This document shows positions 2,501 through 19,543 of a stretch of 64,000 nucleotides of DNA, piece after piece. The position numbers and the translations under genes are program-made. The number at the start of each line of letters is the position of its first letter. Position 1 is the first letter of the stretch. Under the pieces are notes generated by a model. That model had not been told where the DNA came from, did no database searches, and worked only from the letters and a program-made list of their open reading frames with translations. Source of the DNA: Gemmatimonadota bacterium (GTDB taxonomy: Bacteria; Gemmatimonadota; Gemmatimonadetes; Longimicrobiales; Gaopeijiaceae); assembly GCA_039589315.1 (NCBI GenBank), contig JBDHHQ010000017.1, positions 1 to 64,000 of the forward strand, written 5' to 3'.

Positions 2501-2654
2501 GGGAGCTCTGCGCCACCCGTCTCGTGCCGTCGAGTCGGTGCACGCTGGCCGAAGCGATCTCAGCGCCCGACGGCGGCACGGGCCGGGCGGGGGCCCCGGG
2601 GTGACGGCGCACTCGCCTGGCGCGCCCGGACGTATGGCACCACCCGAAACTTCC

Positions 2655-4337
2655 TCACCCACCCCCCAGGGCCACGCCTCCCCTCCGGGGATCGGACACC
2701 CCGTGAAGCGTCCCGTTCTCCTGGACGAGGATCGCCTGAGCGTCGGCGAACAGCTCGTCGTGCTCCACCACGCTGTGGCCTAGGCCCCTCAACGCCTCGG
2801 CCACCTCGGTAGGCAGCCCGCCGGGCTCATGGCGGATCTCGTCGGGGACGTGCTGGTGGTGCACCCGTGGCGCCACCACCGCCTGGGAGAGGCTCATCCC
2901 GTGATCGACCACGTTGGAGATGATCTGAAAGACGGTGGTGATGATCGTCGCACCCCCCGGAGCACCGACTACCATGAGGAGGTCGCCCCGGCCATCCAGC
3001 ACGATGGTGGGCGTCATGGCCGAGAGGCTGCGCTTACCCGGCTCGATGGCGTTCGCTTCGCCCTGCACGAGCCCGAAGAAGTTGGGGGATCCCGGCTTGG
3101 CGCTGAAGTCGTCCATCTCGTTGTTCAGGAGGACTCCGCTACCCGGTACCACCACCTTGCTGCCGTACCAGGTGTTCAGCGTGGTCGTGACCGAGGCCGC
3201 GTTGCCGTAGGCGTCGACGACGGAGAAGTGCGTCGTGTGCGCGCTCTCCCGGAAGCTCTCCACTCCTGGCTCGACTTCGCTCGCCCGCGTTGCGGCGTCG
3301 CTGGCGATGCTCCGCGCCCGTGCCGCCCCGTACTTCGGAGACGTGAGAATGTCCATGGGAACGGGTGAGAAGTCGGGATCGGCCAGATAGTGGTTCCTGT
3401 CGGCGAAAGCGCGCTTCCAGGCCTCGGCCAGCACGTGGATGTGGGCGCTCCCGTGCCATTGGAGGTCCGTCACGGAGAATGTGTCGAGGATGCCTCCCGC
3501 CAGCGCGAGCGTGGTACCACCCGAAGACGACGGAGGCATGGACAGGACTGTGTGGCCTCGGTACGGAAACCGGACCGGGTCACGCCAGACGGCCCTGTAT
3601 CCCGCGAGGTCCTCCCTGTCCATGATGCCGCCGCCACGCTTCATCTCGGTCACGATCATCTCGGCCGTATCTCCCTGGTAGAAGCCGTCGGAACCGCGGT
3701 CGCGGATGCGCTCGAGCGTCCGGGCCAGGTCCGCCTGGTAGAAGGTGTCGCCGATGCGGGGCGGGACGCCTCCGGGCAGGAAGATCTCAGCGCTGGCTGG
3801 AAACCGGGCCAGTGCCGTGACGATGTGTGGCTCGAAGGACCGGACGAAGCGGTTCCGGACCTCGAAGCCACGCGCCAGCGCAAGGGCTGGCTCTACCAGC
3901 TCTTCCCAGTCCAGGGTACCGAAGCGACCGTGGGCCTCCCACATGCCCCGGACCGAGCCGGGGACTCCGGCGGCGAGGTGCCCGATCACCGATCGCTCGT
4001 CGAGGTTGCCGTGGGCGTCCAGGAACATGTCCCGGGTAGCCCGCCCCGGGGCGCACGACCGGTAGTCCAGCGCGAACGCGGAGGCGTCGGCGGTGCGCAG
4101 GAGCATGAACCCGCCGCCCCCCAAGTTCCCGGCTTCGGGGTTCACCACGGCCAGCGCGAACGCGACCGCGACTGCGGCGTCGACCGCGTTGCCCCCGCGC
4201 TCCAGCACGTCGAGCCCCACCCCGCTCGCGTACCGGTCGGTCGTGGCGACCATCGAGTGGTGCGAGACTTCGGGTGGTGTGTCGTGCCGAAAGGCCCAGT
4301 CCTGCGGCCAATTCGGCGGACGTGAGGACGATCGCAT
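2655..4337 (-). CDS. ggt: Gamma-glutamyltransferase
   Basis: GGNAVDAAVA, GNLGGGGF, autocleavage Thr in HTTHFSVVD, LNNEMDDF, KRSLSAMTP, GAPGG. Confidence 0.92.
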   Translation of the reverse strand: MRSSSRPPNWPQDWAFRHDTPPEVSHHSMVATTDRYASGVGLDVLERGGNAVDAAVAVAFALAVVNPEAGNLGGGGFMLLRTADASAFALDYRSCAPGRATRDMFLDAHGNLDERSVIGHLAAGVPGSVRGMWEAHGRFGTLDWEELVEPALALARGFEVRNRFVRSFEPHIVTALARFPASAEIFLPGGVPPRIGDTFYQADLARTLERIRDRGSDGFYQGDTAEMIVTEMKRGGGIMDREDLAGYRAVWRDPVRFPYRGHTVLSMPPSSSGGTTLALAGGILDTFSVTDLQWHGSAHIHVLAEAWKRAFADRNHYLADPDFSPVPMDILTSPKYGAARARSIASDAATRASEVEPGVESFRESAHTTHFSVVDAYGNAASVTTTLNTWYGSKVVVPGSGVLLNNEMDDFSAKPGSPNFFGLVQGEANAIEPGKRSLSAMTPTIVLDGRGDLLMVVGAPGGATIITTVFQIISNVVDHGMSLSQAVVAPRVHHQHVPDEIRHEPGGLPTEVAEALRGLGHSVVEHDELFADAQAILVQENGTLHGVSDPRRGGVALGGG

Positions 4338-4451
4338 CCCGCAAAGCTAGCAGATCGGTGAGGTGTCTGCGGCCGGAATTGCCGTTTCGGAGCTTGATGG
4401 CTCAGTTGTAGTCTTCGACCCTTCCGGTCAAGCGGAGCTCTCGAGGCAGCC

Positions 4452-5405
4452 GTGACATCCAGACGCAACGACGTGATCCGGCCGCGTGCCCTGAGACCGG
4501 GTGCGCGCATCGCCCTCGTCGCGCCGGCCGGCCCGCTGGAGCCGGACCGGATCGACAGATCCGCCGAGCGCTGCCGGAGTCTCGGACTCGAGCCCGTGGT
4601 CTTCCCTGCGGCGGCCGCACGGCACGGCTACCTGGCGGGGACGGACAGCGAGCGCCTGGGAGACCTGCAGGCCGCGTTCGACGACCTCACGATCGACGGG
4701 GTCTGGGCGCTGCGCGGAGGTTACGGCACGCTTCGCATTCTCGATGGACTGAGCCTGGAGCGGCAACGCCGGGCACCGATTCCGTTCATCGGTTTCAGTG
4801 ACAACACCACGGTCCATATCCGGCACGTACACGCCGGTGTCGTCTCCTTCCACGGTCCCCATCCCGGGGCCGAATTCCCGCCGGAGACGGCTGAGACGTT
4901 TCGGAGAGTGCTCTTTTCGGCCGAGCCTGCCGGGCCGTTGCTGGCCCGACCCGAAGACCCGCAGCCTCGCGCGGTGGTGTCGGGGCGGGCGGAGGGTCGT
5001 CTGGTCGGGGGCAACCTCGCCATGCTCGCCTCGCTTTGTGGTTCCCGAGACGCGCTGGTCGCTCGCGGGTGCATTCTGTTCCTGGAGGAGGTCGGGGAAG
5101 CGGCCTACCGCGTGGACCGCACGCTGAGGCAGCTCGAACGGGCCGGTGCCCTCGAGGGGCTGGCGGGACTCGCCCTGGGCCGCTTCACCGAGGTGCCCAC
5201 GGCCGACGAGCAACGCCTACCCGGGGTCATCGGCGAGCTCGCCGAACGCCTGGCCGTACCGACCGTGGTCGATCTGCCGTTCGGTCACGTTGAGCACAAC
5301 AGCACGCTACCGATGGGATCGATGGGGCTGCTGGACGCGGATGCGGGGACGCTGACGCTGACCGAACCGGCGGTGACGCTCGGCGGGCGCCTCCCCGGTG
5401 CCTGA
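4452..5405 (+). CDS. ldcA: LD-carboxypeptidase (peptidase S66)
   Basis: RGGYG, GFSD (catalytic Ser), GGNL, FLEE (Glu), FGH (His). Confidence 0.88.
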   Translation: MTSRRNDVIRPRALRPGARIALVAPAGPLEPDRIDRSAERCRSLGLEPVVFPAAAARHGYLAGTDSERLGDLQAAFDDLTIDGVWALRGGYGTLRILDGLSLERQRRAPIPFIGFSDNTTVHIRHVHAGVVSFHGPHPGAEFPPETAETFRRVLFSAEPAGPLLARPEDPQPRAVVSGRAEGRLVGGNLAMLASLCGSRDALVARGCILFLEEVGEAAYRVDRTLRQLERAGALEGLAGLALGRFTEVPTADEQRLPGVIGELAERLAVPTVVDLPFGHVEHNSTLPMGSMGLLDADAGTLTLTEPAVTLGGRLPGA

Positions 5406-5418
5406 GGCGATTCTGCCT

Positions 5419-6258
5419 TCAGGCCAGAAGTGAAGCCAGCTTGCCCACAACCTCGCCGAGCATTCCCTCGAGGTCCATCAGGTCGCCGGCGTCTTCCAGC
5501 CAGGACATGAGTCGTATGCCGACCTTGCTGCCCCAGTGGGGGCCTCGGAACGCCTTCAGCTCCATGACGCCGTCGATCTCGTCCCAGCTCCACAGGGTCT
5601 CGAACGGCGTCTGCCGGAGAAGGGTGCCGGTGAGCGTGCGGCCGTCGGCCAGGACCAACCGCACCGGATCGCCGACCGCCGTGCCGACCTGACCCGAACG
5701 GCTGAGCCAGCGGGCCAGTCCCTCATCGGTGCGCTGGAGGACCTGCAGAGCCTCCAGTTCGAATTGGACTTCCGAGAGCACCATGACCTCGGTGCGCTTC
5801 CGGTCGAAGTAGCGCTCGGCGAAGTGCTTCAGGATCGCCAGTGCGATCATCCAACCCGACGCCATGCCGTCGTATTGCTCGTCCCACTCGGCCCCGTGCC
5901 CGAACCCGGATTGGACCAGACGCAGCACGCTGTGGCCAAGGACCTGTTCGATGGTGATCTCGATGAGGGTTGCGCCCTGGGGCACGTCGAGCGCCAACAG
6001 GAGCCGCTGCGGCGGATCGGCGGCCAGAACCCGGTGGGTCATCCCCCCATCGGTGCGGTCCCAGAACCACCGGACGGTCTCCCCCACCTCCATGCGCCCC
6101 TCGGCACGGTCCACGAACCACGCCGGCACCTTCGAGGGGTCTGTCCAGGCCTGCCAGATGGTCTCCGCCGGTGCGTCGATGCGAATCTCATCCTCGATTC
6201 TGCGACCTTCATGCCGCATCTGCCTGTCGTTGCCTACGAGCGAGCCTTCAGTCGCCAT
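5419..6258 (-). CDS. SRPBCC/AHSA1-like domain protein (probably two START-like domains)
   Basis: IRIDAPAETIWQAWTDP..WF, LRLVQSGF...GW; ATG at 6258 overlaps the stop of the upstream regulator (TGATG). Confidence 0.8.
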   Translation of the reverse strand: MATEGSLVGNDRQMRHEGRRIEDEIRIDAPAETIWQAWTDPSKVPAWFVDRAEGRMEVGETVRWFWDRTDGGMTHRVLAADPPQRLLLALDVPQGATLIEITIEQVLGHSVLRLVQSGFGHGAEWDEQYDGMASGWMIALAILKHFAERYFDRKRTEVMVLSEVQFELEALQVLQRTDEGLARWLSRSGQVGTAVGDPVRLVLADGRTLTGTLLRQTPFETLWSWDEIDGVMELKAFRGPHWGSKVGIRLMSWLEDAGDLMDLEGMLGEVVGKLASLLA

Positions 6259-6926
6259 CAGTTGATCTCCTCGGATGCGTCGGATGGGTCGGATGCGTCT
6301 TGGGTCGGGGATGGCCGCGCCAACGGATAACAACCGAGCACGAGGCGGTAGGGGCGCCCCGGCGCCGGCTGTCCGTCCGGCTCCATGGCCGGTTCGGTGA
6401 ATCCTGCGATGACCTCGGTGACCGCTTGTTGCACGGCTTCGGCGAACGCCGCACGCTGATCCGGCGAGCGGAAGCGCAGCTCGGCGTCCAGCGACAGCGT
6501 GGGGACCGGGGCGTCACGCTCCTGACCTTCGGCGAGGGCCTCACCGAGCTCGCCTTGGAGCGCCGCGGTCAACTGCAGCAGATGGGCGGCGCTGAACGCG
6601 TCCGCTACTCGCGCGTCCTCGGCGCTCACGGGCCCCAGAACGCGGGGGAGCAGGACGTAGGATCGGGCCGTTGCCCGGTAGAGCTTCTCCACGAGGTTAC
6701 GACGTCTGCGCTCCCCTGCGGGCACGAGCAGCCCTGCGTCCACCAGCGTCCGCACGTGGTAGTTGACCTTCTGGGCGGGCAATCCCATGCGCCGGGCGAT
6801 TTCGGCCGCCGAGGACGCCGCACTGGCTTCCCTCATAATCCCCTGACGGAGGGGGTGGAGCAGCAATTCGGCCGCGCGGGCCGTGCCGACCGGCTCGATC
6901 TCTGAAAGGGGTGCTGAAGAGGACAT
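6258..6926 (-). CDS. ArsR/HTH_20-type winged-helix transcriptional regulator
   Basis: LLHPLR..I..., SAAEIARRMGLPAQKVNYHVRTLVDAGL, EKLYRATARSY; start chosen at the ATG immediately after a consensus promoter. Confidence 0.82.
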   Translation of the reverse strand: MSSSAPLSEIEPVGTARAAELLLHPLRQGIMREASAASSAAEIARRMGLPAQKVNYHVRTLVDAGLLVPAGERRRRNLVEKLYRATARSYVLLPRVLGPVSAEDARVADAFSAAHLLQLTAALQGELGEALAEGQERDAPVPTLSLDAELRFRSPDQRAAFAEAVQQAVTEVIAGFTEPAMEPDGQPAPGRPYRLVLGCYPLARPSPTQDASDPSDASEEIN

Positions 6927-6933
6927 ACAAGAA

Positions 6934-6961
6934 ATTTTATACGTAACAATATATTTGTCAA
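6934..6961 (-). promoter_or_regulatory. Sigma70-type promoter, probably leaderless, for the ArsR-like/SRPBCC operon
   Basis: Minus strand reads TTGACA (6961-6956), 16 nt, TAAAAT (6939-6934), 7 nt, ATG (6926); an AT-rich island in GC-rich DNA with no Shine-Dalgarno. Confidence 0.7.
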
Positions 6962-7151
6962 CAGGGCCGAGCGAGGTATCGATTCCCGGGCGGACGGCCT
7001 GTTGGTCACGGGGTAGGTGAACTACCTGCGGGCCTTTGGGACGGGCACCTGGGCGAACGGTGTGCTGAGCCCCGAGCTGGTGGACTCGAAGGCTCCAATT
7101 CGGGATGGCGCTCACCGTGCATTTGAGCGGGGACGCGCTCGGCGCTTCGTG

Positions 7152-8969
7152 TCACCAGCCCAGCACGTAGTCGCTCTTCGCCGGACTGACTCCACCCATG
7201 AACACGCCGGTTTCGGGGTCGATCATCACCATCTTCACTGCGCCCGCGCCGGAGCTCGCCTGGCGGTAGGGCTGTTGAAGGGGGACCACCGCTACCCGGT
7301 GGCCGCGGCTGGCCAGCTCCTCGGCCACGTCCGCCCCCAGGACCTCCGGCATGGTGAGCATTCCTCGCACGTTGCCCGGATACATGGATGCCGCGAACGC
7401 GCTGCTCGTCACCGTGGGCCCCTCCACGGCCTGCTGGACGTTCATCCCGAAGTGAACGATGGCCAGGAACGACTGGAGCATGGCTTGGGGCTGGTTGTCT
7501 CCACCCGGCGTATTCCAGGCCAGGTACGGCCGGCCGTCCTTGAGCGCCAGCGCCGGGTTGATCGTGTGGCGCGTGCGTTTGCCCGGTACCAGGACGTTCA
7601 CGTCGTTCTCGTCCAGTGAGTAGTAGGGCATGCGGTTGTTCAGGACGAAGCCGCCCCCCTCCACGACCATGCCACTTCCGAACGTGCCGTTCACGCTGTG
7701 GGTCACGGAAACGAGGTTGCCGAACTGGTCTGCGATGGAAAACGAGGACGTCTCACCGTCTTCAGGAACGCCCTGGGCAACGCGCTGTACAGGGTTGGGG
7801 CCCGACTCGTATTCCACCGCGGCCCCGTCGACCGTCGCGGACATGGTCATCGGGTCGCCCGCCGAAGCAACGACCATCGCCCGGTCCATGCGGATGAGAT
7901 CCCGCCTGAGGGTCGCGTAGTCCTTTGAGAGCAGCTCGTCGGTCGGCACGTCGACGTGCCGCGGGTCGGCCACGTACCGATTCCGGTCGGAGAAGGCCAG
8001 CTTCATGGCTTCCGTCACCACGTGAACGTAGTCCGGGGAGTTGTAGCCCAGGGCCTCGAGGTCGAAGCCCTCGAGGATGTTCAGGGCCATCAACATGACG
8101 ATGCCCTGGGAGTTCGGCGCGCTCTGGTAGACGTCGAGATCCGCGTACGATGTGTGGATGGGGGCGGTCTCCTCCGCCTCGAACTCAGCTAGATCCTCGT
8201 ACCTGAGAAGCCCGTTATGCTGCTCATAGAAGTCGGCCGACTTGCGGGCGAGGCTGCCCCGGTAGAAGGCGTCGGCACCGGCTCGGCCGATCTCCTCCAG
8301 CGAGCGGGCGAGGTCTGATTGGACGAACACCTCCCCTGTGGTCTGGGGCGTACCGCCAGGGAGTAGCAAGGCGGCCGACGAGGGGTAGGGCGAGATCTTG
8401 TCCACGGCCCGCTGGTGGTAAGACGCCGCCCAGTGCGTGAGGGGGTGACCGTTCCTGGCCGCCGCCACCGCCGGCGCCACGACCGCTGCATGGTCCATCG
8501 TCCCGTAAGTCCGGAGCGCCAGGTCGAAGCCACCCACCGCGCCGGGCACGTCGGTCGAGAGGGGGCCCGCGTCAGGGATCTCACCGAGCTCCATGTAGAG
8601 CTCCCGTGTGGCGAGTGCGGGCGCCGGACCGGTCCCGTTGATGAACACGACGCGGTCTTCCTCCGCCAGGTAGGCCAGGATGAACCCGTCGCCACCCAGT
8701 CCCGCTTGGTGTTGCTCCACGACCGTGGTCATGTAGAAGACCGCGGCCGCGGCATCGAAGGCATTGCCGCCGGCCTCCAGCATCTTCATGCCGGCGATGG
8801 CCTCCAGGGGGTGCTCGGCAGCCACCATGCCCAGGGTGCCCATGACCACAGGTCGCCAAAAGGGTCGGTCGGCGGGATTCGCCCCGTCGGAGCCTTGTGA
8901 CGTCGCTGGAGCGGGCACACCGAGGAGCAGGATGGCGGCGGCGATCGAAAAGGGCGTGGAGCGGGTCAT
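7152..8969 (-). CDS. Gamma-glutamyltransferase family protein, secreted
   Basis: Signal peptide MTRSTPFSIAAAILLLG..; GGNAFDAA, GLGGDGF, ETSSFSIAD, LNNRM, KRTRHTINP, TPGGDNQPQ. Confidence 0.88.
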   Translation of the reverse strand: MTRSTPFSIAAAILLLGVPAPATSQGSDGANPADRPFWRPVVMGTLGMVAAEHPLEAIAGMKMLEAGGNAFDAAAAVFYMTTVVEQHQAGLGGDGFILAYLAEEDRVVFINGTGPAPALATRELYMELGEIPDAGPLSTDVPGAVGGFDLALRTYGTMDHAAVVAPAVAAARNGHPLTHWAASYHQRAVDKISPYPSSAALLLPGGTPQTTGEVFVQSDLARSLEEIGRAGADAFYRGSLARKSADFYEQHNGLLRYEDLAEFEAEETAPIHTSYADLDVYQSAPNSQGIVMLMALNILEGFDLEALGYNSPDYVHVVTEAMKLAFSDRNRYVADPRHVDVPTDELLSKDYATLRRDLIRMDRAMVVASAGDPMTMSATVDGAAVEYESGPNPVQRVAQGVPEDGETSSFSIADQFGNLVSVTHSVNGTFGSGMVVEGGGFVLNNRMPYYSLDENDVNVLVPGKRTRHTINPALALKDGRPYLAWNTPGGDNQPQAMLQSFLAIVHFGMNVQQAVEGPTVTSSAFAASMYPGNVRGMLTMPEVLGADVAEELASRGHRVAVVPLQQPYRQASSGAGAVKMVMIDPETGVFMGGVSPAKSDYVLGW

Positions 8970-9104
8970 GGCAGAATCCGTAAATCGAGCTGCGGGGAAG
9001 CGAGTGGCTCCATCATGGATGAGGCGCCTCACGGTACTTCGCAATCCATCCGGCGTCGGGGACCGGGCGGCCATCGCGTCTTCGTGTATCCGGTCGTTGC
9101 GGAG

Positions 9105-9626
9105 CTACCCTCCGCGAGGCGCCGCCTCCCTGGCCGACATGCAAAGCACCAGGAAGTTGTACCGCCGCTCCCCCGGTCCAGGGACGACGGCGTTCTCCAC
9201 CGTGGCCTCGGCTTCCGTGCCGAGGAGCCCGCCGCTGTAGAAGTTGAAGAGGCAGTCCGACCCATCTTCGCGGAATCGGAGCGACGCCTCGTTGGGGGCG
9301 TCCATGGGGTCGGGGGTCCGGGTCCAGCCAGCGGCCCTGACTCGCTCGTAGAACACCCGGGCCTCCTCCGCCGGGGTTCGTGTCGTGAGGCCCGACGCGG
9401 TGACACGACATCCCGGCACCATGGCCCGGCTCCGCCAGTCGTCGATGGTGTCCGCTTGGGTGATGGCCGTCATCTCCACCTCTTCTACCAGGAAGCGGTG
9501 CGCCTCATGGCAGTGGACCTCCTCCTGGGCGAGCGTTGGGGCGGGAGAAAGAAAGAGGCAGGAGGCCAGCATCGGCCAGGTGAGGCCGCCACTGACCCAC
9601 GCACGGCTCGCTCCCACCGCGGTCAC
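9105..9626 (-). CDS. Hypothetical secreted protein
   Basis: Signal-like LASCLFLSPAPTLA-Q; protein-like composition; co-oriented with its neighbours; start uncertain. Confidence 0.6.
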   Translation of the reverse strand: MTAVGASRAWVSGGLTWPMLASCLFLSPAPTLAQEEVHCHEAHRFLVEEVEMTAITQADTIDDWRSRAMVPGCRVTASGLTTRTPAEEARVFYERVRAAGWTRTPDPMDAPNEASLRFREDGSDCLFNFYSGGLLGTEAEATVENAVVPGPGERRYNFLVLCMSAREAAPRGG

Positions 9627-9681
9627 GAGGCGACTCGCTCCCGCCGGGCTCTACTGGCGCTCGGGCCCCGAGGTAGCCCGA

Positions 9682-11499
9682 TCACGGGGCGACTTCGCCC
9701 TTTCCACGCTCTACCCCCCAGCTTCGGTCCAACTCGCCGAGCAACGTGGCGAAGCGTGGGTCCTCTCCGAGGCCAGCCAGCGGGTCGGAGCGGTGGTAAC
9801 GGAGGTAAAGGGTCTCGTCCCAGGCCAGAGGTGCCGCTGAACGGAGAGCCTCGAAGGCCGCGTCCGAGTCGCCCAGGGCAGCGTGCACGAGGCCGAGGTG
9901 GAATGGCGCTGAGGCTGCCTGTAGTCGGGCAAGAGGCTCACCCGCGCCGGCCTCGTCGCCATGGGCGATCCGATCGAGTGCCCGGGCCGTGTCCGGCCAC
10001 GCCTGCGCCCATCGCTCCGTCAGCCTCTGCAGTGTGGCGCTTGCCTCGTCCGCACGGTCCAGGGCGTAGAGGGCCAGCGCTTCGATCAGGCGGCCGTAGT
10101 CGAATCCGGCATGTCGCTCCATGGACCCCCGGGCTTCGGAGAGCGCCAACTCCGGTTTGCCCATCGCCAGGTACGCCGCCGCGAGGTTGGTCCTCGCCTC
10201 GGGGTCCAGTGGGTCCAGCTGAGTGCCCAGAATGCCTGCGTCCACCGCCGCTTCCGCATCGCCGACCAGCAGATCGACCCATGCGGTCCATTGGTGCGCC
10301 CCCGCGTAGCTCGGCCTCAACTCGAGAGCGCGCGCGTGTGCCCGCAGGGCGCCGGGCCCGTCACGGCGGTACGAGCGCAGGTTGCCGAGAGCCGAGTGAG
10401 CCTCCGCCAGATCAGGATCGAGCTCCAGGGCCTTGTTGCACGTGCTCTCGGCTCGAGGCAGCCAGTCATCGGCGTCGACGTGACCGTAGTCCATGAGTGC
10501 AACCAGGCTCAGCGCGAGCTCGGCCCACGCCGGCGCGTAGTCGGGATCCCGCTCAATGGCCCGTTCGAAGTACCCGATCGCCGCTTCGAGGCCCTCCAGG
10601 GTCCGATCCACATAAAGCTCACGGCCCATGGCGTAGAGGCGGTATGCCTCGAGATCGTCGGTGGGAAGAGCCGGGACCCTCGCCTCTTCCTCAGCCGTCA
10701 GCCGAGCCTCCAGGGCCGCCATGATCCTCGCTGCCAGCTCGCTCTGGAGGTCGAAGATGTTCTGCGTGGTGAGCTTTCGGTCGTACCGTTCGGCCCAGAG
10801 GTGGGCGTCGGTGCGCGCATCGATGAGCTGCACGTTCAGGCGCACCCGATCGCCCGCGTGTTGCACACCGCCCTCGACAATGGTTCCGGCTCCCAGCTCC
10901 CCGGCGATCTCCCGGATCGACTTCTCTGTGCTGCGGTAGCCCTTTACCGAAGTGCGCGAGATCACCGTCAAGGCCGAGGCCCGTGAAAGCTCCGTCAGCA
11001 GGTCGTCGTGCAGGCCGGCCGCGAACGGTTCTGCCTCGTCGGTGCCACTGAGGTTCTCGAACGGGAGTACCGCGACCACCCGTGGGTCCGGGTCGGCAGG
11101 TCGAATGGAAACCGAGTCCGGTTCATCAGCGTCGCCCGGTCCGGGCTCGCCAGTTGGCGCGCGGCTGGCACCGGGTTCGCCTACGGTCTCGCGTGCTGCG
11201 CCGGCAACCGGAAGCCGAGGTGCGTGATGATTTGCGGCATCCCGTCCGTCCGTCCTTCGGACTCCGTCCTCCGTGATGTCGAAGACCCAGGCGAGGACCA
11301 GGGCCAGAGGCAGTCCGAGGATGGCGAGGGCGAGGAACAGCTCGTCCGACCACTCCGGCAATCGGGACGAGGGCACGACCACGTCCACGAGCTCCAGACC
11401 GGCGATGGCCACGACCACGTATACCGCCGCGACCTGATAGACCTTCCGGCGCTTGAGCTCGGCCAGGAGGGATGTGAGGCGGCGGGGGGGATCGGTCAT
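9682..11499 (-). CDS. Membrane-anchored TolB-like (adenylate-cyclase-associated) domain and TPR protein
   Basis: LLAELKRRKVYQVAAVY N-terminal two-TM anchor, VAVLPFENLS..F.AGLHDDLL..L, VISRTSV, HLWAERYDR, TPR repeats. Confidence 0.85.
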   Translation of the reverse strand: MTDPPRRLTSLLAELKRRKVYQVAAVYVVVAIAGLELVDVVVPSSRLPEWSDELFLALAILGLPLALVLAWVFDITEDGVRRTDGRDAANHHAPRLPVAGAARETVGEPGASRAPTGEPGPGDADEPDSVSIRPADPDPRVVAVLPFENLSGTDEAEPFAAGLHDDLLTELSRASALTVISRTSVKGYRSTEKSIREIAGELGAGTIVEGGVQHAGDRVRLNVQLIDARTDAHLWAERYDRKLTTQNIFDLQSELAARIMAALEARLTAEEEARVPALPTDDLEAYRLYAMGRELYVDRTLEGLEAAIGYFERAIERDPDYAPAWAELALSLVALMDYGHVDADDWLPRAESTCNKALELDPDLAEAHSALGNLRSYRRDGPGALRAHARALELRPSYAGAHQWTAWVDLLVGDAEAAVDAGILGTQLDPLDPEARTNLAAAYLAMGKPELALSEARGSMERHAGFDYGRLIEALALYALDRADEASATLQRLTERWAQAWPDTARALDRIAHGDEAGAGEPLARLQAASAPFHLGLVHAALGDSDAAFEALRSAAPLAWDETLYLRYHRSDPLAGLGEDPRFATLLGELDRSWGVERGKGEVAP

Positions 11500-13018: not shown

Positions 13019-13517
13019 TCAAGCGACCTCTCCTCCCAGGTCGGCGACGAGGTCTCCGAGGTAGCTTCGCAGCGTAACGTCGTGTCCCAGTATGAACCGG
13101 GCCACGAAACGGAAGAGGGGGCTGTAGATCTCTCCGTCCTCCGTAACGGTCAAACGCGTCGCCGCTCCCTCAACCGCCAGCTCATAGGTCCACACGCCGC
13201 CGAACGGGAGGTCTTCGCCCGCGATCCGGACGAGCAGTCTCTTTGGCGGTATAGCCTCGACCACCTCCAGGGGGAGCTGGCAATTGGATCCGTGCTCGAT
13301 CCACGCTTCGTGGCCTGGTCGCTCGATCCGGTCGACGTCGGAACCTCCAACGGGGAAAGTCGTCAACGTCGGTGAGGGCCCGCCAGACCCTCTCCTGCGG
13401 GGCATCGAGCCGTGCCGTCACCGAGGCTCGGTGGGAGACGGGGAGCAGGCTTCCCACTCCGAGCACGAGGAGCACGAGTACTAGCATGGCCGCGGCCATC
13501 CGGAGTATCCACTTCAA
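13019..13517 (-). pseudogene. SRPBCC (polyketide cyclase-like) protein with N-terminal TM, split by a one-base insertion
   Basis: The N-half (MKWILR...DAPQERVWRALTDVDDFPRWR) and C-half (SDVDRIE...PFGGVWTYEL...RLTVTEDGE) join if one T is removed at 13342-13343 (TGG AGG T TCC GAC). Confidence 0.8.
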
Positions 13518-14014
13518 GATCCTCCTCCTGCGTCAGCACGTGTTCGGTTCTGGCTGAAGGAGCTCCCGGCCGCCTCCCGGATCATGTCGTCCGCAGCCCG
13601 GCCCAGGAGGGTCAGTCCGTCCAGCGCCCTACTTCGATCCCCGGGTGGCAGCCTCTCGAGCAGGTCCTTCACGAGCTCGGGGTCGAGGACGGACTGGGCG
13701 TCCCGGACCCGCCGGCCGGCCTCCGTCAGCCGGAGCTCCACGACGCGACCGTCGGCGGCGGAACGCCGCCGGTCCACATAGCCCTGCCTTCCCAACCGCC
13801 CGACGGAGATCGACATCGTGGAGACGGTCACACCCATGTGCTCGGCGAGCTCCGAGACGGACGTGGGCTCGACGTCGTCGAGATGGCTGAGGATGCCGGC
13901 CTGGTGAGCGCTCATCCGCGTGCCCGTCGCCGGGTCGCGCACGTGGCGGGTGTGACACGCGAAATAGATCCTGGGATATGTCGCGATAAGCCGATCGACA
14001 GCCGATCCGTTCAT
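13514..14014 (-). CDS. MarR family transcriptional regulator
   Basis: SVSELAEHMGVTVSTMSISVGRL..QGYV.R..DGRVVELRLTEAG. Confidence 0.9.
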   Translation of the reverse strand: MNGSAVDRLIATYPRIYFACHTRHVRDPATGTRMSAHQAGILSHLDDVEPTSVSELAEHMGVTVSTMSISVGRLGRQGYVDRRRSAADGRVVELRLTEAGRRVRDAQSVLDPELVKDLLERLPPGDRSRALDGLTLLGRAADDMIREAAGSSFSQNRTRADAGGGS

Positions 14015-14036
14015 GAAGAGAGAGTGGTCCCAATTA

Positions 14037-14055
14037 TTTGATTTGTCAAATCAAA
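14037..14055. promoter_or_regulatory. Perfect 9-1-9 inverted repeat, probable MarR operator overlapping a minus-strand TTGACA
   Basis: TTTGATTTG-T-CAAATCAAA, 22 nt upstream of the MarR ATG at 14014. Confidence 0.7.
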
Positions 14056-14102
14056 GTGCTTTCGGGACCGGTGCGGGAACCTCCGAGGTAGCTCCTGGGT
14101 TA

Positions 14103-14120
14103 TAGTTGTAACTACAACTA
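14103..14120. promoter_or_regulatory. Perfect 8-2-8 inverted repeat, probable MarR operator for the SDR-MarR operon
   Basis: TAGTTGTA-AC-TACAACTA overlapping a -10-like TATAGT, just upstream of GGAGGA-ATG at 14139. Confidence 0.72.
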
Positions 14121-14138
14121 CCATCCCCGGGAGGACAC

Positions 14139-15005
14139 ATGTCACGCACGAATCTGGAGGGGAAGACGGTCCTGATCACCGGAGGATCGAGCGGCATCGG
14201 GAAGGCGGCGGGCATCTCGTTCGCGAAAGCCGGGGCGATCCCGATTCTCGCGGCTCGGTCCAGGCCCAAGCTGGAGACAGCACTGGAGGAGGTCTCCCGG
14301 ATCCAGCCCGAGGCCGGCTACGTCGAGGTCGACGTCTCCGATCGGACCCGAGTCGGGGAGATGGCGGGTGAGGTCCTGGAGCGCTTCGGCAGGATCGACG
14401 TCCTGTTCAACAACGCCGGGCACGCCACCGTCGGACCGGTCGAAGGCTCCGGCTTCCAGGACGACACGCGCGCGATGTTCGACGTCGACTTCATGGGCAC
14501 CGTGAACGTCACCAAGGTGGTGCTTCCGTCGATGCGCTCGAGGGGCCAGGGCCATATCCTGAACATGTCCTCGGTTGTCGGGCGGAAGGCCTTTTCTCAC
14601 TTCGGTGGGTACTCTGCCGTGATGCACGCACTTTCCGGTTTCACGGATGCGCTGAGGCAGGAGCTCCACGGGAGCGGGATCGCCGTATCGATTATTTACC
14701 CTGCGCTGACCCAGACGCCCCTACTGGCGGACGTGGCGCCCGAGGACATGCCGCCGACGTTCCGTAGTCTGAGCCCGCTGTCGGTCGACGAGGTGGCTCG
14801 GGCGGCGGTCGAAGGCGTCCGGCGCGGCAGTCGCCGCGTCGTCGTGCCCGCGCAGCCCCGATTGCTGATGCTCCTGGACGCGCTGTCTCCCGTCCTCGGA
14901 GACGGGATGGTGCGGCTGATCGAGCGCCCCCTCGTGGGCCGGCTCATCGGGTCGTTCCGGGGCACGACGTACGCACACGACGCATCGATTCCGGCAGGCT
15001 CATGA
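14139..15005 (+). CDS. Short-chain dehydrogenase/reductase (SDR)
   Basis: TGGSSGIG, NNAG, NMSS; YSAVM replaces the canonical YxxxK. Confidence 0.9.
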   Translation: MSRTNLEGKTVLITGGSSGIGKAAGISFAKAGAIPILAARSRPKLETALEEVSRIQPEAGYVEVDVSDRTRVGEMAGEVLERFGRIDVLFNNAGHATVGPVEGSGFQDDTRAMFDVDFMGTVNVTKVVLPSMRSRGQGHILNMSSVVGRKAFSHFGGYSAVMHALSGFTDALRQELHGSGIAVSIIYPALTQTPLLADVAPEDMPPTFRSLSPLSVDEVARAAVEGVRRGSRRVVVPAQPRLLMLLDALSPVLGDGMVRLIERPLVGRLIGSFRGTTYAHDASIPAGS

Positions 15006-15487
15006 CCGCAAAGCCGCAACCAGGAGACGTGAGCGGCAGCGGTGGCCCGGTCGAGGCTCGGGCCGCCGCTGCCGCCATTGCCCAAGAATGTCTGGCCACG
15101 CGGGCCCGGCGCCTCGACCGGACCCTAACCCGGCTCTACAACGACGCGCTACGGCCATACGGGGTGACCTCGACGCAGCTAGCCCTATTGGTGGGTCTCT
15201 CGCTACAGGAGCCGGTCCGGCCTGGCGTGCTCGGCCGCGGCGTGGGGCTGGAGAAGTCGACGGTCAGCCGCAACGTCGGGCGCATGATCGACTCGGGTTG
15301 GGTCACCGAAATAGACGGCCAGGACGGTCGGAGCAAGCTCCTGCGGCTCACCGATGCCGGGTCCACGCTCGTGAGCCGGGCGTACAAAGGCTGGCGCTCG
15401 GCTCAGGAGCGGGCGAAGACGGTGTTGTCACAGGGGACGGCGGAGAGCTTGGCCCGGTTGGACGCGGGGCTGGGGGCGGATTCCTAG
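15002..15487 (+). CDS. MarR family transcriptional regulator
   Basis: CLATRARRLDR..TRLYNDALRP.G.T.TQ, LEKSTVSRN, DGRSKLLRLTDAG; ATGA overlap with the SDR. Confidence 0.9.
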   Translation: MTAKPQPGDVSGSGGPVEARAAAAAIAQECLATRARRLDRTLTRLYNDALRPYGVTSTQLALLVGLSLQEPVRPGVLGRGVGLEKSTVSRNVGRMIDSGWVTEIDGQDGRSKLLRLTDAGSTLVSRAYKGWRSAQERAKTVLSQGTAESLARLDAGLGADS

Positions 15488-15488
15488 T

Positions 15489-15680
15489 GGCACGTCGGCG
15501 CCACAGCACCCTTGCAACCGGCCCCGTTCCTGCGGAGGTTGGACGTGGCGGCGATCCACGCCCAACCTCTTCGGCCCCACCTCAGCTGGGGCCCCCGTGA
15601 GGCAAAGGGGGGCACACTCCCGGATCGGTATCGACGGGGCCTTTGTGGCGCCATGACGCGCCGCCGCTGAGGGGTGGCGG
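15489..15680 (+). ncRNA. Candidate structured non-coding or leader RNA, no known family assigned
   Basis: Nested complementary segments 15497-15505/15644-15652, 15520-15527/15634-15641, 15535-15548/15556-15569, 15573-15579/15587-15593 and 15661-15667/15674-15680, plus loop-loop complementarity CCTCAGC/GCTGAGG. Confidence 0.5.
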
Positions 15681-15707
15681 GCGTGGCGTGCACACAGGAG
15701 ACCCGAG

Positions 15708-16409
15708 ATGCCGAAGGACAAGGACCTCAAGCGCCTCGTTCGCAGGCGTATGGCAAAGACGGGCGAGTCCTACACCGCCGCCCGCGGCAACATCATGAAA
15801 GAGGAAACACGCTCCGGGGACGATTCCTCCCTTCCCGAGGTGCCCTTCCTTCCCGACGACCATGAGACGCTCGCGGGCATGAGCGATGCTGCAGTCCGGA
15901 ACGCGACCGGCAAGGACTGGCTGGAGTGGACCCGCACGTTGGACGCGGCGGACGCTGTGACAATGACCCACCGAGACATCGCCGCCCACCTCCACGACGA
16001 CTTGGACGTACCAGCGTGGTGGGCCCAGATGGTGACGGTGGGCTACGAGCGCCTCCGCGGACTGCGCGAGCCGGGTCAGCGTCGCGGGGGCGGGTACGAC
16101 GTCAACAAGAGCAAGACGATGCCCGTGCCGGTAGCCGACCTTTATCGAGCCTTCGACGACGAGGCGCTTCGCGACCGGTGGCTCCCGGACGTGGCCCTCA
16201 CGATCCGCTCGTCGACGGTGAACAAGTCCATGCGGATCCGCATGCCCGACGACACGCCGTTGGACGTCTACTTCACCGCCAAGGGTGAGGCCAAGAGCAC
16301 AGTCTCCCTGCAGCACCGGAGGTTGCCCGACAAGCGGGCCGCCGATGAGGGGAAGGTCTACTGGGGGGGGCGGTTGGCGGCGCTGGCGGAGCTGCTCACG
16401 ACGGAGTAG
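15708..16409 (+). CDS. Hypothetical protein: basic N-terminal KRLVRRRMAKTGESYTAAR segment, DUF4287-like helical domain, SRPBCC-like C-terminus
   Basis: AGGAG RBS; SDAAVRNATGKDW.EW, WWAQMVTVGYER.RGLR.PGQ, SKT..VPV..LY.AF.D...R.RWL. Confidence 0.75.
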   Translation: MPKDKDLKRLVRRRMAKTGESYTAARGNIMKEETRSGDDSSLPEVPFLPDDHETLAGMSDAAVRNATGKDWLEWTRTLDAADAVTMTHRDIAAHLHDDLDVPAWWAQMVTVGYERLRGLREPGQRRGGGYDVNKSKTMPVPVADLYRAFDDEALRDRWLPDVALTIRSSTVNKSMRIRMPDDTPLDVYFTAKGEAKSTVSLQHRRLPDKRAADEGKVYWGGRLAALAELLTTE

Positions 16410-16534
16410 CGCCCAACGAAGTCGCTCGCCCGGAGGGGTCGCAGGGCCTCTCCGGGCGATCCGCACCACCGCCGAGGGCAGAGGGCAATCCACCGCACCA
16501 GAACCGGAGCGGGCTTGCCAACGTGCGAGAAGGG

Positions 16535-16561
16535 TGACATTGTCATCAAATAACATTGTCA
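16535..16561. promoter_or_regulatory. Tandem TGACATTGTCA / TAACATTGTCA boxes, probable PadR operator
   Basis: Palindromic 11-mer and a near copy 16 nt apart, 20 nt upstream of the padR ATG. Confidence 0.55.
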
Positions 16562-16581
16562 CCAATTGAGAGGAAGGGTGG

Positions 16582-16914
16582 ATGGCGGAAGCGAAGCTAG
16601 GTGAGCTGGAGCTGCTCGTTCTCCTTGCGATCATGCGACTGCCCGACGGCGAGGCGTACCCCGTGTCCGTCGTGAACGAGATCGCTGAGCACACGGGTCG
16701 CCGAGTCCGACGCGCGACCGTCTACGTGCTGCTTCAGCGCCTGGAGGCCAAAGGGCTGGTGTCGACACGCCTGGGCGATCCACTCCCGGAGCGCGGCGGT
16801 CGTTCGCGACGCCTGGTGCGGCTCGAGCGGGCGGGGCTCGAAGCCGTGCGCGATGTGCGGACCGGTCTCTTGAGCATGTGGGACGGCTTGGAAGCGCGCT
16901 TCGGCGATGCGTGA
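16582..16914 (+). CDS. PadR family transcriptional regulator
   Basis: LGELELLVLLAI, VYVLLQRLEAKGLV, PERGGRSRR; coupled to an ADOP permease. Confidence 0.9.
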   Translation: MAEAKLGELELLVLLAIMRLPDGEAYPVSVVNEIAEHTGRRVRRATVYVLLQRLEAKGLVSTRLGDPLPERGGRSRRLVRLERAGLEAVRDVRTGLLSMWDGLEARFGDA

Positions 16915-19543
16915 GTCGGCGCTCCCGAGGGCCGCCCGGGCCCTCCTCCGGTTGATTCCGCCTCGTCATCGCGAGCACGCCGGGGGCGACCTCGAGGAGG
17001 CCCACCGGGCTCGCCTCGCGAACGGAAGTGGCTCGGTCGCCTGGGTGGCGACGGTACTCGACGCCGGCCTCGTGGCGGGGGCTTTGGCCTGGGTCACGCT
17101 CATGGAGGGCACAGGGGCCCGGTTGAAGTTGGCGCACGAAGCCAGGTCGGCCGTCATCGGACTCTGGCGCTCCAGAGGACTCAGTGTCCTTTCGGTATCC
17201 GTCCTGGCCATTGGCATCGGCGCCACGGCTGCCAACCTCAGCCTCCTCCAGACCGTCGTGCTATCATCGCTTCCGTACGAGGACGCGGACCGCCTCGTGA
17301 CCATCTGGACCTGGTCGGAGCTGGACGGCGCTCGGGACGGCAGCTCCTACCTCAACGTGTCCGATTGGGCGGCGTCGACCCCGAGTCTCGAGTCGGTGGG
17401 ACTCTACTACCGGCCCGAGTTCACCCAGCGGACGGTCACCGGGGTGGCTCGCCCCTACCGCATCCAGGTCGGGGCGGTGGACGGGAGCTTCTTCGCCGCC
17501 GTGGGCGCTCGCCCGATCCTCGGACGAGCGCTCACTGCCGGGGACGGCCGCTTGCGGGCGCCGGTGGTCGTGCTGAGTCACGCCTTTTGGACCCGGTCGT
17601 TCGGCGCGTCGCCCGACGTGCTGGGGCAAACCATCGAGCTCGATGGGCGCCGTAGGCGCATCGTGGGCGTCATGGGCCAGGAAGTGGAGCTGCCTCGGGC
17701 TGGCACCCAGCTGTGGGAGCCCCACAGCCTCTGGACGGGGTTCCCCGACGACCTGGGTAACCGGCAGGACGACGAGTTCGGCGTGCTCGCCCGCATGAGC
17801 GCCGAAGCTACGCTCGACGGGGTCCAGGCCGAGTTGGATGCCGTATCGCTCCGACTGAGCGAGCTCTACGCCGAGCACAACGAAGGCCGCCGTGCCGTCG
17901 CCCGGCCACTCCGGGAAGAGGTAACGGGGGCCGACCTTCCGCATGCACTCTGGCTGCTGCTGGCGGCGAGTCTGGGGCTTCTGGTGGCGGCCTGTGCGAA
18001 CGTGGGTCAACTCTGGCTGTCGCGCGGCCTGGCCCGCACCCGGGAGCTCACCGTGCGGGCTGCGCTGGGAGCGAGCCGCCGCAGATTGACTGCTCTGCTT
18101 TTGATCGAGGCTGGCATCCTCTCGTTGATCGCCGCCGGCCTGGGGTTGTGGCTGGCGGACGCATGCCTCGGGCTCGTTCGTGCGCTCTCGCCGTCGGACA
18201 TTCCCCGAATCCGTGAGGTGGACCTCAGCCTGGTCGTCGTGGGCGTCGCCGTGGGAACCTCCACCGGCGTCGCCCTGATCGTATCGTGGTTGCCGGCTGC
18301 CCACCTGTCGCGCATCCAACCGGGGCAGGCTCTCCGCAGCGGGGTGCACGGTGCCCTATCAGGGTCCCGTCACCTCTCTCGAACCGTCTTCGTCGTGGCA
18401 CAACTGACTCTCGCCACCTTCCTGGTCGTGAGTGGAGCTCTGTTGTTCCGGAGCCTGCAGACCGCGGTGAGCGCGGATCCGGGCGTGGAGACGGACGGCC
18501 TCGCGGTGGCTCGTCTCTCCCTGCCTGCGGAGTCCTATCCCGACCTCGACGCCGTATGGGCCTTTTTCGACCAGGCGGTGCGGCGGGTCGAGTCCGTACC
18601 GGGAGTCTCATCGGCGGCAGCCGTGGAGGACTTCCTGCACAAACGGAACACCGCGAACGAGATCCACACACGAAACGAAGAGCAGCCGTTCAGGGGCCTG
18701 CGCGTCATTTCCGACGGTGTCACGCCCGGTGCCGTGAGGACCCTGGGGCTGCGGCTCGTGTCTGGCAGCGCGCTCGAGGCCCGGGACCGGTGGGGTGCGG
18801 GTGAAGATCGGCCTCTTCTGATCAACGAACGCCTCGCCGAGGGCCTTTGGCCTGGCGAGGAGCCGATCGGGCGCGAGCTCATGTTGGGTCGATACGATCC
18901 CGCCAAGCCATGGAATCGGGTCGTTGGCGTGGTGGAAACCGATCGGCGCCGGGGCCTGGACGAGGATCCGATCGGCCAGGTGTTCTTCGTCCTCCCGTTC
19001 CACGATATGGACTTCCTCATCCGTGCTTCCCTGCCTCTCGAGCAGGTCGCAGGCCCCGTGCGGGATGCAATCTCGTCCGTGGACCCCGATCTGGCGGTCG
19101 CGGACCTGATCCCGGCACGACACCTGCTCGACCGGACGATCCGGCTGCGCCGCGCACAGGCGTACCTGGTCGCGATCTCGGCGCTCGGTACGGTGGCGCT
19201 GGCGATGATCGGCGTCTTCGGGATCCTGGCGGAGTCGGTCGTCGCGCGGCGATCGGAGATCGGCGTCCGCATGGCCGTCGGCGCTCGCACGACGAAGGTG
19301 GTGGGTCTGGTGCTGCGGGACGGGTTGGCCCTGGCTGTGGGCGGCGTCGCGCTCGGAGTGCTGGGTGCGCTGCTGGGTGGCTCGTTTCTTCGCGCGTACC
19401 TCTTCGGCATCGAGCCGTGGGATTGGGTGGCCCTGACTCTGGCGGTGGCGACGATTCTGGCCTTGAGTGGAATCGCGAGCGCGGTTCCGGCCTGGCGCGC
19501 AGCACGCGTCGATCCGGTGCGCGCTCTCGGCGGCGGACACTGA
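16907..19543 (+). CDS. ADOP-type duplicated ABC permease (MacB/FtsX-like, two repeats)
   Basis: LPYEDADRLV, ACANV..L.L.R...R.RE...R.ALGASR, EIGVRMAVGA, PAWRAARVDP. Confidence 0.9.
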   Translation: MRESALPRAARALLRLIPPRHREHAGGDLEEAHRARLANGSGSVAWVATVLDAGLVAGALAWVTLMEGTGARLKLAHEARSAVIGLWRSRGLSVLSVSVLAIGIGATAANLSLLQTVVLSSLPYEDADRLVTIWTWSELDGARDGSSYLNVSDWAASTPSLESVGLYYRPEFTQRTVTGVARPYRIQVGAVDGSFFAAVGARPILGRALTAGDGRLRAPVVVLSHAFWTRSFGASPDVLGQTIELDGRRRRIVGVMGQEVELPRAGTQLWEPHSLWTGFPDDLGNRQDDEFGVLARMSAEATLDGVQAELDAVSLRLSELYAEHNEGRRAVARPLREEVTGADLPHALWLLLAASLGLLVAACANVGQLWLSRGLARTRELTVRAALGASRRRLTALLLIEAGILSLIAAGLGLWLADACLGLVRALSPSDIPRIREVDLSLVVVGVAVGTSTGVALIVSWLPAAHLSRIQPGQALRSGVHGALSGSRHLSRTVFVVAQLTLATFLVVSGALLFRSLQTAVSADPGVETDGLAVARLSLPAESYPDLDAVWAFFDQAVRRVESVPGVSSAAAVEDFLHKRNTANEIHTRNEEQPFRGLRVISDGVTPGAVRTLGLRLVSGSALEARDRWGAGEDRPLLINERLAEGLWPGEEPIGRELMLGRYDPAKPWNRVVGVVETDRRRGLDEDPIGQVFFVLPFHDMDFLIRASLPLEQVAGPVRDAISSVDPDLAVADLIPARHLLDRTIRLRRAQAYLVAISALGTVALAMIGVFGILAESVVARRSEIGVRMAVGARTTKVVGLVLRDGLALAVGGVALGVLGALLGGSFLRAYLFGIEPWDWVALTLAVATILALSGIASAVPAWRAARVDPVRALGGGH

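Follow-up and report, generated by a model that had tools for sequence, protein, structure and literature searches.

In phage lambda, a short N-terminal arginine-rich helix of the N protein binds the structured boxB/nutL RNA in the leader of its own gene, and N represses its own translation through nutL. In the BglG/SacY/LicT antiterminators, a small N-terminal RNA-binding domain acts on the RAT leader RNA, which can precede the antiterminator's own gene. Here we analyze a 64,000-nucleotide stretch of the genome of a Gemmatimonadota bacterium (assembly GCA_039589315.1, contig JBDHHQ010000017.1, positions 1 to 64,000 of the forward strand; hereafter, the window), in which an uncatalogued structured leader RNA at 15547-15707 is coupled to a basic module comprising the first 33 residues of a 233-amino-acid (aa) protein. 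The module likely binds the RNA and feeds back on its own translation; we rate the chances of this reading, taken as a whole, as about even.

The likeness to lambda N and boxB would consist in a short basic N-terminal helix and a structured RNA in its own leader; there is no likeness in sequence. Whereas boxB is a single small hairpin, the present leader spans about 150 nucleotides (nt), with a three-way junction and a kissing loop, and whereas N is one protein with one job, the module is found ahead of eight or more unrelated domain families, in cellular genomes. With the antiterminators, the locus would share an N-terminal part that is followed by other domains and lies beside the leader RNA of its own gene. 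However, the antiterminators have a fixed PRD architecture acting on a terminator, whereas here the C-terminal domains vary and no intrinsic terminator was found in a terminator scan.

Passages in studies of the leaders of ribosomal proteins S15, L20, L10 and S6:S18 (PMC4538822, PMC1865079, PMC3895269) describe binding by the leader's own protein, which represses or traps initiation. The present element would resemble such leaders in being a structured 5' leader, often with a pseudoknot beside the ribosome-binding site; the ribosomal leaders, however, mimic an rRNA site and serve one protein family each, whereas here a portable, putative binding part of 33 residues is combined with an interchangeable remainder of the protein. 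Orphan riboswitch candidates (PMC5737381, PMC8632094, PMC11109978) are likewise multi-stem, covarying leaders with a tertiary contact that occur in several phyla. The main texts of these three papers mention neither nitrilase, carbon-nitrogen hydrolase nor Gemmatimonadetes, and no fixed N-terminal peptide; DUF4287, DUF1835 and AHSA1 were absent from the one or two of the three texts in which each was sought. Passages of a preprint (bioRxiv 10.64898/2026.10.21.760802, clusters #630,527 and #566,452) describe a leader motif before unrelated enzymes and another before YndB-like (SRPBCC) proteins. The enzymes in these passages (glyoxalase, flavin monooxygenase, NmrA-like) differ from those found here, the YndB-like domain is N-terminal there, and no N-terminal peptide module is mentioned in them; the comparison is by description, and identity is neither shown nor excluded.

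Full-text literature searches and word searches in discovery papers yielded no description of the leader RNA or the module. A search of window positions 14800-17000 with Rfam 15 (4227 models) at E<=10 gave eight weak matches, all far below the gathering scores and none inside 15489-15707, and ten relatives (from Streptomyces, Rhizobium, Frankia, Chloroflexia and others) gave no match at E<=1. A known RNA family was thus ruled out, in keeping with the preliminary description of the locus as a candidate undescribed RNA-protein system.

For the analysis of the leader, we used alignments of 18 Gemmatimonadota leaders (A1), 72 metagenome leaders (A5) and 68 diverse leaders (A7), along with a covariance model, R1, built from 60 relatives; the relatives are kin and were partly picked by likeness, so that the counts below are non-independent trials. 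The module was examined in an alignment of 34 diverse modules (A2) and in an AF2 model. The parts of the element in the window are as follows.

15547-15707, plus strand: predicted leader RNA, beginning with GGCG (predicted start) and ending one base ahead of the ATG
15543-15628, plus strand: 5' domain, a three-way junction (covariance model R1: 93.9 bits, E 3.7e-21, the sole match in the 6.67-Mb assembly)
15552-15557, plus strand: P1 5' strand CGATCC, pairing with GGATCG at 15622-15627 (RNAalifold)
15558-15565, plus strand: J1/2, ACGCCCAA, unpaired, with invariant CGCC and AA (columns C16, G17, C18, C19, A21 and A22, n=60)
15566-15569, plus strand: P2 5' strand CCTC, pairing with GAGG at 15599-15602 (98.6-100% paired)
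15573-15593, plus strand: P3 hairpin, stem 15573-15579/15587-15593, loop L3 CCTCAGC at 15580-15586 (7/7 stem pairs changed on both sides)
15599-15606, plus strand: P2 3' strand GAGG and junction CAAA (15603-15606); AGGCAAAGG invariant, n=60
15607-15621, plus strand: P4 hairpin GGGGG/GCACA/CTCCC (97.8-100% paired, 1-2 of 5 pairs changed on both sides)
15622-15627, plus strand: P1 3' strand GGATCG, closing the three-way junction (RNAalifold)
15628-15649, plus strand: variable linker or hairpin, differing in length and sequence between relatives
15650-15687, plus strand: P5, GCCATG 15650-15655 / CGTGGC 15682-15687, enclosing P6 (RNAalifold on A1)
15660-15678, plus strand: P6 hairpin, stem 15660-15665/15673-15678, loop L6 GCTGAGG at 15666-15672, the kissing partner of L3
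15697-15700, plus strand: Shine-Dalgarno GGAG, 7 nt before the ATG (from sequence)
15708-15806, plus strand: basic N-terminal module MPKDKDLKRLVRRRMAKTGESYTAARGNIMKEE, codons 1-33 (A2 alignment, AF2)

The leader consists of a three-way junction and a second hairpin that are locked together by a covarying 7-bp loop-loop contact. In A1, 94.7% of the cells are paired, compared with 86.2% after shuffling (none of the 500 shuffles was as high) and 39-63% in slid controls. The corresponding values are 95.6% against 87.7% shuffled in A5 and 94.7% against 77.1% in A7, an alignment made with R1 that leans towards the model. All six pairs of P1 (94.2% of the cells paired) and all seven of P3 are changed on both sides in A7, and pair 153/189 of P5 in A1 occurs as AU (7), GC (7), GU (2) and CG (1); P2 is nearly invariant, so that covariation says little for it. 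Two elements of the junction, CGCCSAA and CAAAG, are unpaired and invariant.

In the window, L6 is the exact 7-nt complement of L3; in A1, 96% of this loop-loop helix is paired, and four of its seven pairs have changed on both sides. A perfect 7-bp Watson-Crick partner for a leader's own P3 loop is found downstream in 56 of the 66 diverse leaders (62/66 when G-U is allowed), compared with 6-19/66 in controls that set each loop against downstream regions taken from leaders having a different loop word. At least 10 distinct loop words occur, each with its complement, including CCTCAGC/GCTGAGG, CCCCGGC/GCCGGGG, CTCACGC/GCGTGAG, CCCACGC/GCGTGGG and CCTTGGC/GCCAAGG, as well as CCCCAGC, CCTCGAC and CCCTGGC with their own complements. 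The element is thus a structured, aptamer-like RNA backed by covariation in both the helices and the kissing loop. The structured part adjoins the ribosome-binding site: P5 ends 9 nt ahead of the Shine-Dalgarno sequence, the place of which is taken by GGAG or GAGA-like runs in the relatives; in 51 of 52 leaders, 28-39 nt separate the end of the kissing partner from the start codon; and the spacing from CGCC to the start codon is 135-167 nt across leaders.

The kissing loop had been proposed in the preliminary description from the same two 7-nt words (15580-15586 and 15666-15672), and this proposal is borne out, as are the P3 hairpin and P6 (delimited there as 15661-15680, here as 15660-15678), both conserved and covarying. 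All the other pairings named there (15497-15505/15644-15652, 15520-15527/15634-15641 and the 14-bp hairpin 15535-15548/15556-15569) are present in the window, but the two outer stems and the 14-bp hairpin are genome-specific and were rejected as parts of the RNA: their 5' arms, within 15497-15548, lie upstream of the conserved start near 15547, where the relatives have kept nothing besides promoter-like T/A blocks. The suggested switch, in which the L3 loop would alternatively pair with a central TGAGG, is unsupported, because GAGG at 15599-15602 is the invariant 3' strand of P2; the loop of most relatives, CCCCAGC, also fits this segment poorly.

Other alternative pairings were seen by eye, and for two of them, the P1 5' strand with AGGCC and CCACGCC with GGCGTGG, there is no covariation support. 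In CN_hydrolase-type leaders of Actinomycetota and Rhizobia (L070, L097, L112, L115, L132, L074, L085 and L100), the P1 5' strand reads GGCCU, the complement of an AGGCC that shares bases with the ribosome-binding site (GGAAGGCC, GAGAGGCC); their pairing is a possible alternative that would hide the site. The pairing of CCACGCC (15556-15562) with GGCGTGG (15680-15686) is perfect in the window but was rejected: relatives with TCCTCGCC keep GGCGTG. Within the variable linker, CCTTTG (15640-15645) is complementary to the invariant CAAAGG (15603-15608) and recurs, by eye, in about half of the Gemmatimonadota-type leaders. It could form a second pseudoknot or an alternative structure, a pairing that cannot covary because its partner is invariant.

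Covariation rather than folding energy decides the case for structure, as the preliminary description anticipated, and the energy of the trimmed leader is unremarkable: the predicted transcript 15547-15710 has a z of -1.69, with 11 of 200 shuffles folding equally well, although its minimum free energy fold gives the consensus helices P1-P4. The fold of the whole gap, 15489-15707, is only moderately unusual (z -2.54, 3/200 shuffles equally good). An RNA on the minus strand was rejected (z -1.00 for the gap, an unremarkable fold), and every covariance-model match lies on the strand of the gene. A leader peptide or small open reading frame (ORF) in the gap was rejected as well: reading frames across the gap remain open in some relatives, but there is no common start codon and the helix substitutions are compensatory, so the element is read as RNA.

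The second half of the finding is the coupling of this RNA to the module. Behind the RNA, the encoded proteins start with the consensus M-x6-K-x3-R-x-R-x3-TGE-x-Y. Starting from the module, we detected the RNA in 72 of 80 metagenome loci (the 80 most similar to the query out of 546), on the same strand and about 160 nt upstream; seven of the eight misses have less than 100 nt of upstream DNA, which leaves 72 of 73 testable loci with the RNA. In Streptosporangiales, where 36 of the 121 genomes searched carry the module, the RNA is present at all 29 loci fetched, and in five other genomes, it accompanies all seven strong module matches, one of them with a variant leader. By contrast, none of eight control loci with module-less DUF4287/SRPBCC homologues matches the RNA. 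Hence, the RNA and the module travel together before unrelated domains, in at least seven phyla, as a near-obligate pair. The domains behind the module are CN_hydrolase, BtrH_N(+DUF4872), DUF1835, DUF4287/AHSA1, DnaJ, LRR, GerE, Ala_racemase_N or none known, and they point to no common pathway. The decisive check proposed in the preliminary description thus gave a positive result: genes whose products start with the KRxVRARxAKTGESYTxAR motif are preceded, whatever the C-terminal domain, by a conserved GAGGCAAAGG core and its covarying stems. The C-terminal domain itself, which had been cast as the ligand sensor of the system, is interchangeable among relatives and so falls outside the conserved unit.

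Two of the loci recovered through the module depart from the common layout. In one metagenome contig (L207, 640-1000), the module gene starts 25 nt after a Cys-rich ORF (…GDCCVFCSFG…) and has its own ribosome-binding site. The variant leader (L182, locus 1597-1800) belongs to a BtrH-like Nonomuraea protein and lies on the minus strand, about 200 nt upstream of the module; it lacks CGCCCAACCTCC…GGAGGCAAAGG and has no R1 match, and it retains the CCCACGC loop with the GCGTGGG partner.

The module is selected as a peptide: third codon positions vary freely, and RNAalifold detects no RNA structure in the module codons (-0.38 kcal/mol, 3 pairs, no covariation). The 34 modules in A2 have no indels, and M1, K8, R12, R14, T18, G19 and Y22 are invariant. 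In the AF2 model (mean pLDDT of the whole protein, 89.5), the module forms a helix at residues 3-18, a TGE turn and a helix at 22-35, and a disordered linker follows. With a profile of the module, 4216 cluster representatives are found at E<=0.001, and in nearly all of them the match is to residues 1-32. Searches for a name in Pfam (E<=10), in NCBIfam and by PDB profile search returned nothing usable, and neither did the ESM Atlas, where the best score (0.76) was to an unnamed cluster; PADLOC gave no match for 11 proteins. Ribbon-helix-helix DNA binders have a helix-G-x-S-helix pattern, with an N-terminal beta-strand ahead of the two helices that pairs in the dimer, and the module was compared with them and rejected as a member: the first helix is preceded by only two residues and no N-terminal strand, and there is no Pfam match at E<=10.

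The rest of the 233-aa protein could be assigned in part. Pfam DUF4287 (PF14117) matches with E 0.0043 and 17.5 bits, under the cut-off of 27; some relatives reach 27.2-28.2 bits, and the window protein is therefore likely a distant member of this family. Residues 130-232 of the predicted structure have the SRPBCC/AHSA1 helix-grip fold, with Foldseek probabilities of 1.00 to 3q63, 2m89, 8es5 and 3rd6 (TM (target) 0.52-0.68), the best PDB matches, 3q63, 2m89 and 8es5, being AHSA1/START-like proteins. Relatives are matched by the Pfam AHSA1 model; for the window protein, there was no match at E 0.01.

The element is widespread. Among 401 genomes of the same order, a DNA search turned up 23 loci that were re-aligned, and 21 of them are true copies; 19 of the 21 lie directly upstream of a gene whose product starts with MPK(D/N)KDLKRLVRARMAKTGESYTTAR, and the other two are a deletion remnant and a copy cut by a contig end. 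The leaders are 73-92% identical where the proteins are about 50% identical. A scan for the core pattern with one genome per species gave at least 121 stretches, of which 80 were fetched; in 45 of these 80, a module starts 135-167 nt after CGCC, and most of the other 35 are chance matches in unrelated sequence. Outside the 45, true copies of the RNA are present at L062, which lies at a contig end, at L089, which duplicates the Chloroflexia locus, and at L108, where the module has decayed. In Rhizobiales, a covariance-model scan located the RNA in 4 of 151 genomes, each time with the module at +153/154. Altogether, the RNA is present in at least seven phylum-level groups, Gemmatimonadota, Actinomycetota, Alphaproteobacteria, Chloroflexota, Acidobacteriota, Myxococcota and Krumholzibacteriota, the record titles including Streptomyces, Actinoplanes, Nonomuraea, Kitasatospora and Frankia; Rhizobium/Sinorhizobium/Ensifer; Chloroflexia; Acidobacteriota; Polyangia/Sandaracinaceae; and Krumholzibacteriia. 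In the 6.67-Mb assembly itself, the leader is single-copy by both BLAST and R1, which rules out a dispersed repeat or mobile element.

Several copies show rearrangement or decay. In the deletion remnant (G004:C10; L023:1497-1700), the 5' domain of the leader is kept at 86% identity and is joined to the C-terminal end of the gene: after GGCAAAGG, the sequence runs into …GEAKSSVSVQHRKLADKE…, and a deletion has thus removed P4 and what follows it, including most of the coding sequence. Two other loci combine an RNA that looks intact with a damaged gene: at L108 (985-1260), the module ORF is decayed (28 codons), and at L087, which is among the 45, the gene is frameshifted after codon 24. Either the RNA persists longer than the gene, or the damage reflects misassembly. 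A Chloroflexia metagenome-assembled genome, also among the 45 (L090:121-1000), contains the 5' domain twice, at a distance of 865 nt; the first copy is truncated, without the kissing partner, and is followed by a small AbrB-like ORF and an ORF that is PIN-like by eye. The arrangement suggests that a toxin-antitoxin pair was inserted here and that its insertion duplicated part of the leader.

The start of the transcript is predicted near 15547, where conservation sets in abruptly at GGCG (positions -12 to -9 from CGCC; G 85%, G 85%, C 71%, G 72%). A composition profile of 127 distinct relatives, anchored on the invariant CGCC, has a T-rich block at -50 to -46 (T 37-56% at -48 to -46), followed by A at -23 (48%) and T at -22, -20 and -19 (44-49%). 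From this profile, two promoter elements are plausibly assigned in the window.

15512-15517, plus strand: predicted -35 box TTGCAA (15512-15514 at -47 to -45; from composition)
15535-15540, plus strand: predicted -10 box GAGGTT, weak (A at 15536 and T at 15540 at the enriched places; from composition)

The assignment of TTGCAA as the -35 box, already suggested in the preliminary description, is plausible because the T-rich block lies at the same distance in the 127 relatives. The more speculative suggestion made with it, that the transcript pairs with DNA flanking its own promoter, is not supported. At the place of the -10 box, most relatives have CATCTT, GATCTT or TATCAT; a scan for consensus promoters found no site. 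Public RNA runs of Rhizobium provide a view of one relative, the Rhizobium leguminosarum copy (L100), in which leader and gene are contiguous in RNA-library contigs of at least four studies. In three of four runs of one study, short contigs at L100:1070-1196, a segment made up of the leader's 3' half and about the first 19 codons, reach depths of 1500-11000, compared with 100-500 for the long flanks, a 10- to 100-fold excess; the data come as contigs, from which neither ends nor strand nor true levels can be read. This segment may be a stable or attenuated fragment, and the depths are a weak hint of a regulatory leader. Contigs start at L100:957 and 962 in two studies, in disagreement with the predicted start near 988, and nothing was drawn from them.

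The 233-aa gene is surrounded by regulator genes (window 13514-19543).

13514-14014, minus strand: second MarR-family gene
14139-15005: short-chain dehydrogenase gene
15002-15487, plus strand: MarR-family gene, the upstream neighbor of the gap
15488-15707: the gap, 220 nt, between the MarR-family gene and the 233-aa gene
15708-16409, plus strand: 233-aa gene, encoding the module, a disordered linker (residues 37-50), a helical DUF4287-like domain (residues 52-116) and an SRPBCC/AHSA1-like domain (residues 130-232)
16582-16914: PadR-family gene, downstream of the 233-aa gene
16907-19543: 878-aa ORF, its start overlapped by the PadR-family gene

The co-occurrence of the module and the RNA suggests that the one likely binds the other. 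In the mechanism that we propose, the helical hairpin of the module, with its invariant K8, R12, R14 and Y22, would recognize the invariant junction elements CGCCSAA and CAAAG, and once bound, the compact fold next to the ribosome-binding site would obstruct or trap the 30S subunit. Negative feedback would then come with the cassette for whatever enzyme is fused behind it. On a broader and more tentative view, which we hold to be possible but somewhat short of probable, the promoter, the knotted leader of 150 nt and the arginine-rich helical hairpin of 33 residues would form a portable cassette that provides an expression set-point for the fused enzyme and has been grafted onto at least eight unrelated families in at least seven phyla. 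A number of observations weigh against self-control by the module. The gene at L207 is the sole testable metagenome module gene without the RNA, and at L182, a canonical module stands behind a diverged leader, so that the pairing is not absolute. The module matches no known RNA-binding family in Pfam, NCBIfam or the PDB profile search. The enzymes involved are unrelated, with no obvious common need for self-control, and an invariant unpaired junction with a tertiary lock is also typical of a metabolite-binding aptamer. The co-occurrence itself could stem from adjacency and joint movement by recombination, and the kinship of the sequences inflates the apparent independence of the counts.

The main rival to self-control is a riboswitch for a small molecule or ion that serves scattered stress or detoxification enzymes, next to which the module would be an unrelated tag, for example for turnover or localisation; we regard this as unlikely. 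The architecture resembles that of an aptamer: several stems meet in a junction, unpaired bases are invariant, and a tertiary contact covaries. The spread over seven phyla and several gene families is like that of known riboswitch classes; the leader-proximal depth, far above that of the gene body in some of the Rhizobium RNA libraries, as in attenuating leaders, is a weak hint in the same direction. However, the one-to-one coupling of RNA and module holds in both directions, module-less homologues lack the RNA, and we know of no riboswitch class tied to a fixed N-terminal peptide. Neither an intrinsic terminator nor varied expression platforms were found, the distance of 135-167 nt from CGCC to the start being kept throughout, and the genes that would be regulated have no evident common pathway.

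Alternatively, the leader might be a passive 5' structure that stabilizes or insulates the transcript, while the module serves the proteins themselves (for example in nucleic-acid or ribosome association or at a DNA operator) and the coupling reflects shared descent of an expression cassette. The promoter-like blocks, RNA, ribosome-binding site and module adjoin one another and could be spread together as a single piece, and the piece does recombine, as the G004 deletion and the Chloroflexia duplication around the AbrB-like/PIN-like pair illustrate. We nonetheless consider this improbable: invariant unpaired bases and a covarying loop-loop lock, kept in seven phyla, exceed the needs of a protective hairpin, and the module lacks the beta-strand of ribbon-helix-helix DNA binders. 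Least probable, in our assessment, is a co-translational unit in which the folded leader and the nascent peptide act on the ribosome (through stand-by loading, pausing or arrest) and no stable complex forms. It would fit a module that begins at residue 1 with no length variation in 34 copies, a kissing partner at a fixed distance from the start codon and, as a weak hint, the high-depth short Rhizobium contigs that cover the leader's 3' half and run to about codon 19 in 3/4 runs of one study. Yet there is no evidence of stalling, the invariant K, R and Y, the TG turn and the predicted helical hairpin resemble a folded binding element rather than an arrest peptide, and the fixed N-terminal position follows simply from a cassette that includes the start codon. 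A type III toxin-antitoxin system was rejected: 15300-15900 contains no tandem repeat family (short two-copy matches only), there is one RNA per gene, and PADLOC gave no match.

The RNA would add a widespread, well-supported structured family, present in seven phyla, to the catalogue of leader RNAs. To our knowledge, this would be the first known case of a leader RNA and a short N-terminal peptide inherited as a unit across unrelated proteins. If the element is a riboswitch instead, it would represent an orphan class with an unusual regulon. If, as we propose, the peptide binds the RNA, the conserved N-terminal extension, unnamed by annotation pipelines, would be explained, and the pair would constitute a natural, compact and transferable device for self-limiting expression as well as a new RNA-peptide recognition pair for structural study and synthetic biology.

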